NCBI RefSeq assembly: GCF_011045215.1
Contig: NZ_CP049201.1
DNA length: 64,000 nt
From: Escherichia coli
Lineage (GTDB): Bacteria > Pseudomonadota > Gammaproteobacteria > Enterobacterales > Enterobacteriaceae
Reading direction: 5' to 3' (one strand)
Shown here: in pieces, positions 19,095-57,572 of the stretch
Numbering within the stretch: position 1 is the first letter of the stretch
How the letters are laid out: each line of letters starts with the position of its first letter
Translations under genes and position numbers: made by a program
Notes under the pieces: model-generated
Seen by the model: the letters and a program-made list of their open reading frames with translations, nothing else
The model's database searches: none
Told to the model about the DNA's origin: nothing

Positions 19095-19224
19095 AGTGTG
19101 GTAGAATATCAGCTTACTATTGCTTTACGAAAGCGTATCCGGTGAAATAAAGTCAACCTTTAGTTGGTTAATGTTACACCAACAACGAAACCAACACGCC
19201 AGGCTTATTCCTGTGGAGTTATAT

Positions 19225-19554
19225 ATGAGCGATAAAATTATTCACCTGACTGACGACAGTTTTGACACGGATGTACTCAAAGCGGACGGGGCGATCCTCG
19301 TCGATTTCTGGGCAGAGTGGTGCGGTCCGTGCAAAATGATCGCCCCGATTCTGGATGAAATCGCTGACGAATATCAGGGCAAACTGACCGTTGCAAAACT
19401 GAACATCGATCAAAACCCTGGCACTGCGCCGAAATATGGCATCCGTGGTATCCCGACTCTGTTGCTGTTCAAAAACGGTGAAGTGGCGGCAACCAAAGTG
19501 GGTGCACTGTCTAAAGGTCAGTTGAAAGAGTTCCTCGACGCTAACCTGGCGTAA
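19225..19554 (+). CDS. trxA: Thioredoxin 1
   Basis: 109 aa, [13 protein letters not shown]...[11 protein letters not shown]. Confidence 0.95.
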
Positions 19555-35838: not shown

Positions 35839-35915
<77 letters not shown>

Positions 35916-35972
35916 TTTAGTCCCGGCGCTTGAGCTGCGGTGGTAGTAATACCGCGTAACAAGATTTGTAGT

Positions 35973-36049
35973 GGTGGCTATAGCTCAGTTGGTAGAGCCC
36001 TGGATTGTGATTCCAGTTGTCGTGGGTTCGAATCCCATTAGCCACCCCA
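35973..36049 (+). tRNA. hisR: tRNA-His (anticodon GUG)
   Basis: Extra 5' G, anticodon loop TTGTGAT, ends CCA. Confidence 0.95.
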
Positions 36050-36069
36050 TTATTAGAAGTTGTGACAAT

Positions 36070-36156
36070 GCGAAGGTGGCGGAATTGGTAGACGCGCTAG
36101 CTTCAGGTGTTAGTGTCCTTACGGACGTGGGGGTTCAAGTCCCCCCCCTCGCACCA
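36070..36156 (+). tRNA. leuT: tRNA-Leu (anticodon CAG)
   Basis: 87 nt with long variable arm, anticodon CAG, ends CCA. Confidence 0.95.
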
Positions 36157-36198
36157 CGACTTTAAAGAATTGAACTAAAAATTCAAAAAGCAGTATTT

Positions 36199-36275
36199 CG
36201 GCGAGTAGCGCAGCTTGGTAGCGCAACTGGTTTGGGACCAGTGGGTCGGAGGTTCGAATCCTCTCTCGCCGACCA
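36199..36275 (+). tRNA. proM: tRNA-Pro (anticodon UGG)
   Basis: 77 nt, anticodon loop TTTGGGA, ends CCA. Confidence 0.95.
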
Positions 36276-36280
36276 ATTTT

Positions 36281-36310
36281 GAACCCCGCTTCGGCGGGGT
36301 TTTTTGTTTT
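36281..36310 (+). terminator. Rho-independent terminator of the tRNA operon
   Basis: GAACCCCGCTTCGGCGGGGTTTTTTGTTTT hairpin plus T-run. Confidence 0.75.
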
Positions 36311-36422
36311 CTGTGCATTCCATCACTTTCCCTTCGCAACAAACGCCCGTGGTAACGCCCTGTCGCGCGGTATGATTTCGCCTTCAAACTCATTGAAGGA
36401 CGACTTCAGGCAAGGAGCGACC

Positions 36423-37658
36423 ATGCTGCAACAGGTTCCAACGCGTGCTTTTCATGTGATGGCGAAACCGAGCGGTTCCGATTGTAATCTGAACTGTGAC
36501 TACTGTTTTTATCTAGAAAAACAATCCCTTTACTGCGAAAAGCCAGTCACGCATATGGACGATGACACGCTGGAAGCGTATATCCGTCACTATATCGCCG
36601 CCAGCGAAATGCAAAACGAAGTGGCTTTTACCTGGCAGGGCGGCGAACCAACGCTACTTGGGCTGGAGTTTTACCGCCGTGCCGTGGCGCTACAGGCGAA
36701 ATATGGTGCTGGCAGGAAGATAAGTAACAGCTTCCAGACTAACGGCGTGCTGCTCGATGACGAATGGTGTGCATTTCTGGCAGAAAATCATTTTCTTGTT
36801 GGGTTATCGCTGGATGGTCCGGCTGAGATCCACAATCAATATCGCGTGACCAAAGGCGGCAGACCCACGCATAAACTGGTGATGCGTGCCCTGACGCTCC
36901 TGCAAAAACATCATGTCGACTATAACGTGCTGGTCTGCGTCAACCGCACCAGCGCGCAGCAACCGTTGCAGGTATATGATTTTTTGTGCGATGCGGGAGT
37001 CGAATTTATCCAGTTTATTCCGGTGGTCGAGCGCCTGGCTGATGAAACGGCTGCTCATGCTGGACTTAAGTTACATGCGCCTGGCGATATTCAGGGTGAG
37101 CTAACGGAATGGTCGGTGCGCCCCGATGAATTTGGTGAATTTCTGGTGGCGATTTTCGACCACTGGATCAAACGCGACGTCGGCAAGATTTTCGTGATGA
37201 ATATCGAATGGGCGTTTGCCAATTTTGTCGGTGTGCCGGGTGCGGTTTACCATCATCAGCCAACCTGTGGGCGCTCGGTGGTTGTTGAGCACAACGGCGA
37301 CGTTTACGCCTGCGATCACTATGTTTATCCGCAATATCGGCTGGGGAATATGCACCAGCAAACAATTGCAGAAATGATCGATTCCCCGCAACAGCAGGTG
37401 TTTGGTGAAGATAAATTTAAGCAGTTACCGGCGCAGTGTCGCAGTTGTAACGTGTTAAAAGCATGTTGGGGAGGCTGCCCGAAACACCGCTTCATGCTCG
37501 ATGCTAGCGGTAAACCGGGGCTGAATTATTTGTGTGCCGGATATCAGCGTTATTTCCGCCATCTACCGCCATATCTTAAAGCTATGGCTGATTTGCTAGC
37601 GCACGGTCGCCCGGCCAGCGACATTATGCAGGCGCATTTGCTGGTGGTGAGTAAGTAA
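36423..37658 (+). CDS. aslB: Anaerobic sulfatase-maturating enzyme homolog (radical SAM)
   Basis: 411 aa starting MLQQVPTRAFHVMAKPSGSDCNLNCDYCFY (CxxxCxxC radical-SAM motif). Confidence 0.9.
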   Translation: MLQQVPTRAFHVMAKPSGSDCNLNCDYCFYLEKQSLYCEKPVTHMDDDTLEAYIRHYIAASEMQNEVAFTWQGGEPTLLGLEFYRRAVALQAKYGAGRKISNSFQTNGVLLDDEWCAFLAENHFLVGLSLDGPAEIHNQYRVTKGGRPTHKLVMRALTLLQKHHVDYNVLVCVNRTSAQQPLQVYDFLCDAGVEFIQFIPVVERLADETAAHAGLKLHAPGDIQGELTEWSVRPDEFGEFLVAIFDHWIKRDVGKIFVMNIEWAFANFVGVPGAVYHHQPTCGRSVVVEHNGDVYACDHYVYPQYRLGNMHQQTIAEMIDSPQQQVFGEDKFKQLPAQCRSCNVLKACWGGCPKHRFMLDASGKPGLNYLCAGYQRYFRHLPPYLKAMADLLAHGRPASDIMQAHLLVVSK

Positions 37659-37825: not shown

Positions 37826-39481
37826 TTAATCAGATTTAATCTGCGCGCGTGGTGGATATTTTTTCAGGATCTCCATATACGCGTGCATTTCGGTCTGTAG
37901 CGGTACACCCATCGGAATATGGCGCACGCCGATGGAGTCGCTTTCCTGCGGATCGGTGTAGAGGTTAAACACCGACGATCCCGCCGTTTGCATTACTGTG
38001 CCGGTGAATCCACCCTGATATCCGCTCTGGGTATAAGCGTAAGGTTGCTGAATCAGGACGTGATACTTGAACTCATCCATACGCACAGCAGCGAGTTTAC
38101 CGTTGAGGAAGTAGTGCTCGGCCTTACGGTTAGACTGACCATTTGTTCCCAGGAAGAAAGATGTCTGGTCCACACCATCGATAAAGGTGGTTTTCGGCAC
38201 TAAATTCGCCACTTTCGCGCCAGGATGCCCTGCCAGATCCAGCGCGGTAGGGAAGAGATCTGCCAGATCGACAATACCGTCAGATTTACGCGGTTGGATC
38301 ATCCCTTTCCAGTACACGAAAGTCGGAACGCGAACGCCGCCTTCCCAGGTAGATCCTTTCGCACCACGGAACGGTGTGCGTCCGTGCGGCGGTACTTCGG
38401 CTTCCGGTCCGTTATCGGAGGTAAAGACAATCAGCGTGTTATCAAGCTGACCGTTTTTCTCCAGTGCTTTATACAGATTAGCGAACACATCGTTCATTTC
38501 CACCATGCAGTCGCCATACGAGGTGCGTGCCGGAGAGCTACCCGCATATTTGGCGTTCGGGTAGTTATCGAAGTGACACCCGCGAGTGCCGTAATAGAGG
38601 AAGAAAGGCTTATCACTCTTCGCCATCTTGTCGAGGAACTTAACGCCATATTCCATCCAGCGTTGATCCAGATCTTCCATATATTTCGGCGTAATGTCGG
38701 CAATGGCCTGTTGTTCGCCGCCGCGCACCGCATGAACGTCATCTTTGCTAAATGGTAATTGCTTGATGTATTCAGAACGGTCCGGACTCAGGGCCACTTC
38801 CGGGTTTACGTGAACATCGCGCCATTCGGTGTACATATCAGACACCGAGTTAAAGCCACGGAAATCATCAAAGCCAACGTTCTGCGGCTGCGACTCTTTG
38901 TTTTCCCCCATATGCCATTTCCCGATGGCCTGGGTGACGTAGCCCTGATCGTGCAGCAGTTGCGGCAGCGTGGTTAACCCTTGCAGCCCGCCCGGTTGCC
39001 CGTACATTGGCGGCATCAGAATGCCGTGGTGGATGGAGTATTGTCCGGTGAGAATGGTGGCGCGGGTTGGGGAAGAGCTTGGTTGAGAATACGCCGAAGT
39101 TAAAATCAGCCCCTGACTGGCAACGGCGTCGATATCTGGTGTAGGGTTACCCACCGCCACGCCGCCACCGTTAAAACCGACGTCCATCCAGCCCACATCG
39201 TCCAGCAAGAAAACAACCACATTCGGTTTCTTACCGGTTTTTTTCTCAAGTTCTGCCAGCTTCTGCTGGGTTTCTTTATCCTGCGCCGGATGCTGCATTA
39301 CTGGCATCATGTTGTCGGCAATAGTGGTCGCCGGTTTAACCAGATACTGGTTTGGGTGATCGTATCCGGCAAAGCCTTTGCGTGCGGTGGCAGTTGACGG
39401 GGTATCTGCTGCGCTGGCCATGAGAGGAAGAGCGGCGGCGACAGCAACAACAAGAAGTTTGGGTGAAAACGAAAATTCCAT
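37826..39481 (-). CDS. aslA: Arylsulfatase
   Basis: 551 aa with signal peptide and sulfatase features, conserved position. Confidence 0.9.
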
Positions 39482-39905
39482 GCAAAATGCTCCGGTTTCA
39501 TGTCAACAAAATGATGACGTAATTAAGCATTGATAATTGAGATCCCTCTCCCTGACAGGATGATTACATAAATAATAGTGATAAAAATAAATTATTTATT
39601 TATCCAAGAAATGAATTTAAAAATCAGGAGAGCGTTTTCAATCCTACCTCTGGCGCAGTTGATATGTAAGGCAGGTTTATTATATCGCGTTGATTATTGA
39701 TGCTGTTTTTAGTTTTAACGGCAATTAATATATGTGTTATTAATTGAATGAATTTTATCATTCATAATAAGTATGTGTAGAATCAAGCTCAGGGTAAATA
39801 TTCACTCAGAAAGTTATTACTCAGGAAGCCAAGAGGATTACAGAATTATCTCATAACAAGTGTTAAGGGATGTTATTTCCCGATTCTCTGTGGCATAATA
39901 AACGA

Positions 39906-40113
39906 GTAGATGCTCATTCCATCTCTTATGTTCGCCTTAGTGCCTCATAAACTCCGGAATGACGCAGAGCCGTTTACGGTGCTTATCGTCCACTGACAGA
40001 TGTCGCTTATGCCTCATCAGACACCATGGACACAACGTTGAGTGAAGCACCCACTTGTTGTCATACAGACCTGTTTTAACGCCTGCTCCGTAATAAGAGC
40101 AGGCGTTTTTTTA
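39906..40113 (+). ncRNA. glmZ: GlmZ small RNA
   Basis: Sequence GTAGATGCTCATTCCATCTCTTATGTTCGCC...CGCCTGCTCCGTAATAAGAGCAGGCGTTTTTTT matches my recollection of E. coli glmZ including its terminator; location between aslA and hemY is as expected. Confidence 0.85.
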
Positions 40114-40159: not shown

Positions 40160-41356
40160 CTACTGTGGTGGGTTGTTCTGCAACGTTAACATCAAACCGT
40201 CGCGACGCATCGCTGCAGCTTCTTCTGGTTTGTGCAGTCTGTCCAGCGCGTCGGCAAGCCATGCGTAATCGTAGGCGTCCGGACGTTGTTTCAGCGCTGC
40301 GCGGAAGGCGAGCGATGCTTCCTGCCATTCGCCGTGCTTCATCAGTGACTGACCCAGTGTGCTCCACAACAGCGGGCGATCGCCGACGTTTTTGATTTGC
40401 TGGCGCAGCACTTTTTCAAGCTGTTCAGGGTTATTGGTTTTCAGACGCGGGATCGGCAGCAGTAGGCGATCGTCATACTGGCGTTTCAGGCCGTCGATGA
40501 TAATTTGCTGGGCAGTATCATGATCGTCACATTCAATAAGATGTTCCGCCATTGCCACCTGCAACGCTACCTGATGACGCGTTTTCCGGCTTTGGTTTTT
40601 CCACCAGTTACGCAAACCTTCGCTACCGTTATCGGCACGCGCCTGATCCATCAGGCCAATCCATGCCTGTTGTTCCAGCATTGCACGATGTTCTTCATCA
40701 CCAACATGGGCTTTCGCCATTGATGGGATAATATCCAGCAGCGAACTCCATGCACCTGTGCGGATATACGCCTGTTCCGCCAGACGTAATACTTCCGGAT
40801 GGCGTGGCGTAACTTCCAGCAGCTTATCCACGCCGTGGCGTGCAGCATGGTTTTCATTACGGGCCAGTTGCAGACGTACACGGGTGATTTCTACCGGAAT
40901 GGTGTCATTGCCGGCCAGCTCCGCTGCGCGTTCCAGATGTTGGTTGGCGCGCGCTTCATCACCACGTTGTTGCGCGGCTTCGGCAGCCAGTAGATAGTTC
41001 ACCACCGGTTGTTCAGCGTGATCGGCATTTTTCGCCATCAGCTTTTCAACTTGCTGATAATCGCCTTCCGCCAGTTTCAGCAGCGCCTGTTCGGTCTGCT
41101 TACGTGCACGGCGACGCTTACGCCCGACAAACCACCCACGGGTGTGCGCGCCAGTGCGGAAGATCCACCGCAGTAGCCACTCAATGGCAAACAGCACTAC
41201 CATCGCCAGAATCAATATGATCGCCAGGCCCGTGACGCTGGTTTCGATATTGTAGTTGTCGGTCTGGATCAGCACATAACCCTGATGACCGGCAATCATC
41301 GGGCCAACCACGATCCCCGCAATCAGCAACACAAAGAGCAATAACACTTTTAGCAT
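40160..41356 (-). CDS. hemY: HemY protein (TPR-containing membrane protein)
   Basis: 398 aa, N-terminal TM segments, conserved position. Confidence 0.9.
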   Translation of the reverse strand: MLKVLLLFVLLIAGIVVGPMIAGHQGYVLIQTDNYNIETSVTGLAIILILAMVVLFAIEWLLRWIFRTGAHTRGWFVGRKRRRARKQTEQALLKLAEGDYQQVEKLMAKNADHAEQPVVNYLLAAEAAQQRGDEARANQHLERAAELAGNDTIPVEITRVRLQLARNENHAARHGVDKLLEVTPRHPEVLRLAEQAYIRTGAWSSLLDIIPSMAKAHVGDEEHRAMLEQQAWIGLMDQARADNGSEGLRNWWKNQSRKTRHQVALQVAMAEHLIECDDHDTAQQIIIDGLKRQYDDRLLLPIPRLKTNNPEQLEKVLRQQIKNVGDRPLLWSTLGQSLMKHGEWQEASLAFRAALKQRPDAYDYAWLADALDRLHKPEEAAAMRRDGLMLTLQNNPPQ

Positions 41357-56797: not shown

Positions 56798-57178
56798 TCA
56801 AAGGCTCCAGGTATTTAACCCTTTTACCTCTTTCTCATAGAACCATTTGTTCGTGTTAACAGCAACATAGGCTGCTACGGCAATTCCCAGAATGTTAACG
56901 CCAATTAATGCACCAACAAATAGAGATAGAATGCCAAGTAATAGAACTATAATTGCTTTTTTCCATAAGCCCAGAACAAATAAATAGATCCAGGAACAGA
57001 AGAAAGCAATGAAATTCATTTGAATAGTTAATCGTTGTCTTACTTTTAATGCTTTAAATGCTGCTTTATATTCTGGTGTTGCTCCCCAGAATCCAGGAAA
57101 GCCATGTTGATCATAAAAATTAAATCGGTATTTCCATTTTTCACTTAATGAACCATCGTTCATATATTCCTTACTCAT
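56798..57178 (-). CDS. yigF: Small inner-membrane protein
   Basis: 126 aa starting MSKEYMNDGS, two predicted TM helices, AT-rich gene. Confidence 0.7.
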   Translation of the reverse strand: MSKEYMNDGSLSEKWKYRFNFYDQHGFPGFWGATPEYKAAFKALKVRQRLTIQMNFIAFFCSWIYLFVLGLWKKAIIVLLLGILSLFVGALIGVNILGIAVAAYVAVNTNKWFYEKEVKGLNTWSL

Positions 57179-57191
57179 AAATACTCCATAA

Positions 57192-57572
57192 CTATTGTTT
57201 TGATGAATCAGTAGGTGCAAGCATTAGCATACTGAAAGTGGAAAAATAACAAATCAAAAAAATCATCGAACCATTGCCTGAACAGGCAAAATCTTCGGCT
57301 ATCATTGTGATGATAGAGATGATATATACTGCTAATGTACCAAAAACATAAGTTTTTATATAGATGAAACCACTATCACGGAGTCGCTGGCAATTCATGT
57401 TGATGACGAGATAATGGAGTACGATGGTAGAGACTATAACAAGAAAACCTGCTTCCCCATCGTTAAAAAAGATAATAAGAAAGGCAAAAATGAAATTTAT
57501 TAAAATAAATGAAAATATATATCGGCGTCTGGAAATCTTACCGTTAGATGTTGGGATAAACATACGTAACAT
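57192..57572 (-). CDS. yigG: Small inner-membrane protein
   Basis: About 126 aa if started at [11 protein letters not shown]; hydrophobic; AT-rich; start uncertain. Confidence 0.6.

Follow-up and report, generated by a model that had tools for sequence, protein, structure and literature searches.

Among the closest described systems are the promoters of Escherichia coli glmY and of glmZ in Salmonella and Yersinia, homologous small RNA genes at which a sigma-54 promoter, with or without an overlapping sigma-70 promoter, is controlled through three GlrR sites and IHF; this control does not apply to E. coli glmZ (Göpel et al. 2011, NAR 39:1294; PMC3045617). In that study the K-12 fragment from −424 to +32 was examined, GlrR binding was absent in EMSA, and a glmZ'-lacZ fusion was indifferent to ΔglrR, ΔrpoN, and extra GlrR. 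Deletions from the 5' side, made as multicopy plasmid fusions and assayed under limited conditions, showed that all DNA above −40 is dispensable, the −40 fusions being fully active, and mutation of either the −35 (ATGTTA) or the −10 (CATAAT) element abolished expression; E. coli glmZ is accordingly described there as having one constitutive sigma-70 promoter. In EHEC (86-24), glmZ is unaffected by qseF or qseB (PMC3903284). glmY is listed in the table of sigma-54 ChIP-seq sites (PMC4591121) and in the RpoN SELEX tables (PMC8743547); glmZ and aslA are absent from these tables and from the main text of either report.

Here, we analyzed the DNA upstream of glmZ in a 64,000-nucleotide stretch of the E. 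coli contig NZ_CP049201.1 (assembly GCF_011045215.1), hereafter the window, for the absence of motifs, identity with K-12, synteny, the pattern of conservation, and the boundary of the aslA-linked cassette, and we predict a promoter and a leader for aslA.

The aslA–glmZ Spacer and Its Base Composition

The segment between proM and glmZ in the window consists of the aslB and aslA pair (table 1). GlmZ is matched at full length by its Rfam model (218.4 bits vs a gathering score of 60; model positions 1–214), and the edges of the spacer are exact, 39482 being the first base past the aslA start codon and 39905 the base before glmZ +1. The MG1655 annotation has an identical 424-bp gap (aslA start codon 3986007 to glmZ 3986432). 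The spacer is 100% identical to that of strain 88-3493 and 97.6% identical to that of K-12, with equal length, and it was found at coverage of at least 80% in 5406 of the 5426 complete E. coli genomes. It is an ordinary, previously studied, and already known region of E. coli, in agreement with a preliminary description of this stretch that had listed about 420 bp of very AT-rich DNA before glmZ, probably conserved rather than novel.

The G+C content of the spacer is 0.318 compared with 0.521 for the whole window, and 0.17% of 424-bp windows are equally AT-rich; the sole other place in the window that matches it is 56939–57362 (G+C 0.311). The long A/T tracts and inverted repeats that had also been reported are present, but they do not exceed what the composition predicts: in same-composition shuffles, 9 W-tracts of at least 8 compare with 6.1 expected (P=0.08), 8 A/T homopolymers with 7.4 expected (P=0.47), and a perfect palindrome with 8-bp arms has P=0.06. 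Because tracts and palindrome are within chance for the composition, the genuine signal of the spacer is its low G+C content and not its repeats. The inverted repeats TGAATGA-N6-TCATTCA and CAATTAATA/TATTAATTG were also considered as Fur- or CRP-like sites, a reading that was rejected because their spacings, judged by eye, misfit the consensus.

Table 1. Features of the proM–hemY Region in Window Coordinates
Feature	Position	Strand	Remarks
argX-hisR-leuT-proM tRNA cluster	35839–36272	+	Terminator 36276–36314
aslB (anaerobic sulfatase maturase)	36423–37658	+	Convergent with aslA
aslA (arylsulfatase)	37826–39481	-	Divergent from glmZ; RefSeq annotation
aslA–glmZ divergent intergenic spacer	39482–39905	.	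424 bp, 31.8% G+C
Predicted aslA 5' leader (~153 nt)	39482–39634	-	Palindrome, SD, possible anti-SD
aslA SD GGAG (plus-strand CTCC)	39490–39493	-	
Leader palindrome/hairpin GTCAaCA-AAA-TGATGAC	39502–39518		One compensatory change in E. albertii
Possible anti-SD AAUGCUU in predicted aslA leader	39525–39531		Can pair with SD region
AT palindrome AAATAAAT-T-ATTTATTT	39585–39601	.	Quoted in the preliminary description; partly conserved in Escherichia
Candidate aslA promoter −10 TAGGAT	39641–39646	-	Predicted; inside conserved block 39623–39650
Candidate aslA promoter −35 cTTACA	39665–39670	-	Predicted; kept in three genera
Fast-evolving spacer, probable junction zone of aslA- and glmZ-linked DNA	39765–39837	.	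10–35% invariant columns in Escherichia
glmZ's own upstream block (−68 to −1)	39838–39905	+	60–90% invariant across Escherichia species
glmZ sigma-70 −35 hexamer ATGTTA	39870–39875	+	3/6 to consensus; exact match to promoter validated in PMC3045617
Site of the sigma-54 −24/−12 element in other genera	39879–39894	+	Here CCCGAT-TCTCT-GTGGC, essential GG replaced by CC
glmZ extended −10 TGgCATAAT (−15 to −7)	39891–39899	+	PMC3045617; invariant across Escherichia species
glmZ sRNA gene with intrinsic terminator (stem 40078–40107)	39906–40112	+	Rfam RF00083, terminator scan
hemY, conserved neighbor downstream of glmZ	40160–41356	-	

Sigma-54, GlrR, and IHF Sites

Within 39482–39905, we found no match to the sigma-54 consensus TGGCACN5TTGCW with up to two mismatches, no GlrR box (TGTCN10GACA) with up to one mismatch, and no exact match to the strict IHF site WATCARN4TTR. 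Across the whole window, the sigma-54 pattern with up to two mismatches gave 45 matches versus a chance expectation of 45.2, and none of these lies between 34152 and 41291. Sites with one mismatch to the IHF consensus (WATCARNNNNTTR) number 5 in the spacer versus 1.9 expected in AT-rich shuffles (P=0.05), and none of them is in a sigma-54 context. As a positive control, 103 glmZ loci were fetched from species-representative genomes by the conserved GlmZ pattern, and the same scans recovered TGGCAC-N5-GTGCA starting at −27 together with GlrR boxes near −246, −214, and −151 in most genera.

Scoring with matrices derived from 63 true sigma-54 promoters of glmZ and 99 perfect-core GlrR boxes, all from other genera, gave the same result. 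The best sigma-54 score in the spacer is −5.6, which equals the shuffle mean (true sites, 18.9–31.0), and the best GlrR score is −14.1, below the shuffle mean of −6.2 (true sites, 14.3–24.4). The position that is in register with the sigma-54 element reads CCCGATTCTCTGTGGC and scores −22.8 versus 18.9–31.0 in the 63 true sites. The sigma-54/GlrR/IHF machinery is absent from the E. coli glmZ spacer. The preliminary description had assigned to glmZ overlapping sigma-70/sigma-54 promoters with GlrR and IHF sites upstream, and the scan for sigma-54 and GlrR motifs that it proposed as a check returned the very absence that it had named as contradicting this assignment: there is no −24/−12 element, and the promoter is of the sigma-70 type only.

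[quoted passage not shown] Such an arrangement is ancestral and the commonest one for glmZ (60 of the 77 loci without adjacent aslA), the E. coli core resembles it position by position, and the one-mismatch IHF-like sites are in nominal excess; however, the essential GG of the −24 element has become CC with the strongly negative in-register score given above, no GlrR box was recovered and the best GlrR matrix score is under the shuffle mean, and the published record is negative throughout, from EMSA, rpoN/glrR mutants, and 5' deletions in K-12 (PMC3045617) to qseF and qseB in EHEC (PMC3903284) and the sigma-54 ChIP-seq and SELEX tables that list glmY and miss glmZ. The main value of this result is a correction, as an annotation with sigma-54, GlrR, and IHF would misplace E. 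coli glmZ in the QseEF/GlrKR regulon, which in this species controls glmY but not glmZ; GlmZ levels are set posttranscriptionally via RapZ and GlmY. Since nothing above −40 is needed for glmZ, most of the AT-rich DNA is not glmZ-regulatory and belongs to the aslA side.

The glmZ Promoter as a Probable Sigma-70 Remnant

The preliminary description was right that the stretch precedes glmZ and holds its promoter, which is a sigma-70 promoter at the 3' end. The string ATGTTA-N15-tggCATAAT is present exactly at 39870–39899 and ends 6 nt before the G of GTAGATGC, with +1 at 39906; it is the same in K-12 and is kept in E. albertii, E. whittamii, and other Escherichia. The K-12 promoter thus shares the locus, the 424-bp spacer, the sequence from −75 to +1, the promoter string, and the start site with that of the window, and the ten substitutions by which the K-12 spacer differs (39506, 39582, 39607/8, 39618/9, 39781, 39794, 39810, and 39830) are all upstream of −75 and in none of the promoter elements. 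A generic sigma-70 consensus scan returned six promoter-like sites and missed the validated one because its −35 hexamer matches the consensus at 3 of 6 positions, so that such a scan is no guide here. Taken with the published mutations, the sequence indicates that glmZ would be transcribed constitutively from this single promoter (ATGTTA, 18-bp spacer, TGgCATAAT) starting at G39906.

Anchored at +1, the E. coli sequence from −40 to −1 is identical to the consensus of sigma-54-type glmZ promoters at 20 of 40 positions, a value that was reached by 1 of 5000 shuffles, other registers giving at most 19. Identity over the same positions is 24–28/40 to Raoultella and 21–22/40 to Salmonella, Citrobacter, and Yokenella (core alignment: agggATGTTAtttCCCGATtctctGTGGCATAAT in E. 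coli vs ggggATGCAAatcTGGCACggcgtGTGCAATAAT in Yokenella), and above −46 similarity is at chance level (11/35). The sigma-54-type promoters and E. coli glmZ, ~50% identical from −40 to −1, have their −10 elements (GTGCAATAAT vs GTGGCATAAT) and their −35-like hexamers (ATGCAA and ATGTTA) in the same registers; unlike those promoters, E. coli glmZ has lost the −24 GG and lacks GlrR boxes, IHF sites, and regulation by GlrR/QseF, and nothing can be aligned above about −45 to −68.

We read the E. coli glmZ core as a decayed remnant of an ancestral overlapping sigma-54/sigma-70 promoter of which the sigma-70 half survives. The in-register similarity could partly be convergence, since an extended −10 needs TGnTATAAT-like bases. 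The phrase "gradually lost" used by Göpel et al. (PMC3045617) fits the relic reading. The Klebsiella/Raoultella promoter (ATGCAA-N15-tgcGATAAT) is sigma-70-only like that of E. coli, with 24–28/40 identity from −40 to −1, and both have tttCC in place of TGGCAC; unlike E. coli, Klebsiella/Raoultella have no aslBA and proM ends at −190, which indicates that the activating region was deleted and not replaced.

Citrobacter werkmanii, FP75, braakii, and On2M (loci L004, L010, L037, and L073) have an intact or near-intact sigma-54 core from −29 to −10; in the three that were scanned (L004, L037, and L073) the cores score 17.9–26.0 and GlrR boxes are absent. The boxes are absent from all four loci because proM ends at about −147, which leaves what seems to be an orphaned sigma-54 promoter that overlaps a sigma-70 promoter. 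Decay of the −24 element as well is seen in C. youngae, Cu233, and wls619.

Rearrangement between proM and glmZ in Enterobacteriaceae

About 100 Enterobacteriaceae loci were compared, and promoter types were tallied over 10 loci with aslA adjacent to glmZ and 77 others. Mapping of tRNAs revealed that the usual layout is argX-hisR-leuT-proM, then ~300 bp with GlrR boxes and the sigma-54 promoter, and then glmZ. Relative to glmZ, proM ends at about −300 in the sigma-54-type genera versus about −3630 in Escherichia, where the distance of ~3630 bp is due to aslB and aslA in between. In a TBLASTN analysis with AslA, aslA was found to adjoin glmZ divergently with a gap of 402–496 bp in all Escherichia species, Kluyvera, Pseudocitrobacter faecalis, and Superficieibacter electus. 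All 10 aslA-adjacent loci are without the sigma-54 core and the GlrR boxes, and their G+C content over the 300 bp above glmZ is 0.28–0.38. The 77 loci without adjacent aslA, with a mean G+C content of 0.446, comprise 60 with both elements, 5 with the core only, 1 with the boxes only, and 11 with neither. As these 11 (e.g., Raoultella and the C. youngae group) also lost sigma-54 and GlrR elements, insertion is not the only route, and the aslBA insertion may not have been the cause of the loss.

A proM end at −146 to −202, with the activating region simply deleted, is found in the C. freundii complex, Raoultella, Pluralibacter, and Superficieibacter sp. 1612. The proM–glmZ gap emerges as a rearrangement hot spot in which the activating region has been lost by at least two routes, namely replacement by an aslBA segment (Escherichia, Kluyvera, Pseudocitrobacter, and S. 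electus) and a deletion of ~150 bp (C. freundii complex, Raoultella, and Pluralibacter).

The limits of the aslA-linked DNA were searched for by BLASTN. On the left, the DNA common to other genera ends at the terminator of the proM operon (BLASTN-short), and this terminator alone was recovered in the BLASTN-short search for ancestral DNA flanking aslBA. On the right, S. electus, which has aslBA, and Superficieibacter sp. 1612, which does not, share homology only in the proM terminator and from −68 to +4, and this pair places the right boundary at −68. The same edge coincides with the conservation footprint across Escherichia. A BLASTN search with the 424-bp spacer against other genera returned Escherichia matches only.

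Taken together, the spacer is very probably a composite of ~68 bp of glmZ sigma-70 core, the decayed sigma-54/sigma-70 remnant, and ~356 bp of aslA-linked AT-rich DNA. The glmZ-proximal ~68 bp (39838–39905) would be glmZ's own DNA, in which the core appears to have kept its sigma-70 half, with the −24 GG gone and the GlrR/IHF upstream activating region absent, and the remaining ~356 bp (39482–39837) would be AT-rich DNA that travels with aslA. In Escherichia, aslB–aslA occupies the place where most genera have the ~300 bp with the sigma-54 promoter and its GlrR boxes. These comparisons extend the work of Göpel et al. (2011) slightly; what is new, if modest, is that most of the AT-rich DNA would be aslA's and would have come with aslBA in replacing the ancestral activating region, together with a candidate promoter for aslA.

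Several further rearrangements and anomalies were seen among the loci. Enterobacteriaceae bacterium UBA7338 (L087) has another insertion of ~3.3 kb in the proM–glmZ gap, from about −3640 to −344, with one 979-aa ORF that has no similarity to AslA or AslB; it sits above an intact GlrR/sigma-54 region and makes the gap look like an insertion hot spot. The proM gene for tRNA-Pro(UGG) is tandemly duplicated above glmZ in Kluyvera cryocrescens and two other assemblies (L071, L097, and L101). Enterobacterial glmZ was also found on a contig labelled Alkalicoccobacillus porphyridii (L046; 279 bp with 95% identity to the E. coli spacer) and on one labelled Chryseobacterium sp. 18061 (L097), which are probably assembly contamination.

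Conservation within Escherichia

Across Escherichia, conserved islands on the aslA side cover 39482–39555, 39586–39602, 39623–39650, and 39665–39712, and they are separated from the glmZ block by the fast-evolving zone, in which strain 702/18 has a 15-bp deletion (39804–39818). Among E. coli genomes, the spacer is at 90–95% identity in 1866 and at 80–90% in 87, and a neighboring 424-bp piece of the aslA coding sequence, which is less polymorphic, is at 90–95% in 2 and at 80–90% in none. This 5' coding segment (39058–39481) is covered to at least 80% in one megablast place in 3692 of 5424 E. coli genomes, and aslA is annotated at full length in divergent strains despite partial coverage; clustered substitutions (e.g., 39278–39302 in strains 702/18 and uk_P46212) may fragment the aslA alignments. 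IS1 elements are found in the spacer of several E. coli strains, and in E. coli PSS-16 (L107, 2288–3000) an IS1 abuts −50, the rest of the spacer and the 5' part of aslA being deleted.

The conservation of the glmZ block is relevant to the idea that the AT-rich DNA modulates glmZ, whether through H-NS spreading, through an UP-element-like or activator site between −68 and −41, or through interference from divergent transcription. Positions −68 to −41 are 75–90% invariant across Escherichia versus 10–35% for the next 70 bp, both H-NS and RpoD bind the spacer in SELEX (PMC3946193), and the published deletions used multicopy plasmids and limited conditions; yet fusions cut to −40 are fully active, the PSS-16 strain with IS1 at −50 exists, and the −68 to −41 block is without an identified motif. 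We consider such modulation improbable.

The islands also bear on a hidden gene, either an unannotated small protein (39611–39700 on the plus strand, 29 codons, or 39624–39761 on the minus strand) or an sRNA. The plus-strand frame (MNLKIRRAFSILPLAQLICKAGLLYRVDY) is open in most Escherichia despite its AT-rich context and overlaps the two most conserved blocks. Its codon changes, however, are more often nonsynonymous than synonymous (5:1, 9:3, 6:3, and 8:2), variable sites are distributed 8/6/12 over the three codon positions, one Escherichia lineage has two in-frame stops, the start and stop positions shift, and a convincing SD is lacking; within the conserved blocks, third codon positions are invariant too, which fits constraint at the level of DNA or RNA. 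The small-ORF hypothesis for 39611–39700 was therefore rejected on its noncoding substitution pattern, its stops, and its shifting ends. Rfam returned nothing in the spacer region besides GlmZ, even at E values up to 1, and MG1655 has no annotated feature in the spacer, which leaves a hidden gene of either kind highly improbable. The other Rfam matches in the window, Rev39_5p_UTR (3813–4102, 157 bits) and the TrxA 5' UTR thermometer (19155–19254, 78.8 bits), have coordinates that are unrelated to the aslA–glmZ spacer.

A Candidate Promoter and Leader for aslA

AslA has been implicated in E. coli K1 invasion, and to our knowledge the regulation of aslA is essentially uncharacterized. Judged from its sequence, 39482–39837 most likely carries a sigma-70 promoter for aslA (cTTACA-N18-TAGGAT), a leader of ~150 nt, and H-NS sites. 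The candidate promoter implies a start near 39633–39637 and a leader of ~153 nt. The motif TTACA-N18-TA(G/A)GAT is spaced identically in Escherichia, Pseudocitrobacter, and Kluyvera (TAAGAT), S. electus having TAGTAT instead, and outside the SD and this promoter-like motif the DNA upstream of aslA in the four genera is not alignable. Within Escherichia the hexamers are invariant and the intervening spacer is variable. The motif was picked after viewing the alignment, so its per-sequence chance rate of ~1% overstates the significance.

In genomic SELEX in vitro, the K-12 spacer binds RpoD holoenzyme and H-NS, and it is listed among the type-A spacers, which are long, divergent, of ~32% G+C, and bound by both proteins; H-NS in a divergent spacer was argued to be able to affect both promoters (Shimada et al. 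2014; PMC3946193). This binding fits an H-NS-silenced aslA promoter, as does the G+C content, which is in the lowest 0.17% of 424-bp windows (0.318 vs 0.521). The high-affinity H-NS motif TCGATAAATT is not enriched in the spacer. The promoter strings given in PMC3946193 (aslA TTAACA-18-TGTAAT and glmZ TTGAGA-17-GATGAT) are best-match predictions, and neither was retained here: the glmZ string is not the validated glmZ promoter, and TGTAAT of the aslA string (39842–39837, minus strand) is unconserved in E. albertii and the E69 lineage. For the neighboring aslB, RegulonDB lists an experimentally confirmed RpoN-dependent promoter (PMC8743547), and no sigma-54 consensus was found at up to two mismatches in 36315–36422, from the proM terminator to the aslB start.

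A more elaborate proposal is that the aslA-linked part of the spacer is a control module dedicated to aslA, with an H-NS-silenced promoter and a conserved ~150-nt leader in which a stem of AAUGCUU with GGAGCAUU and the 39502–39518 hairpin would sequester the ribosome-binding site, and that its arrival uncoupled glmZ from GlrR/QseF in Escherichia. If true, aslA would have a posttranscriptional switch. The predicted leader folds no better than shuffles (z = −0.44), and in the alignment fold the covariation term is −0.42 with most pairs invariant, which gives no evidence of a structured RNA; the proposal is doubtful. An inverted repeat, CCCTCTCCCTGA (39544–39555) and TCAGGAGAGCG (39624–39634), flanks the spacer's most AT-rich core on both sides; its arms are nearly invariant across Escherichia and would allow base pairing between the 5' end of the predicted leader and a segment ~80 nt downstream.
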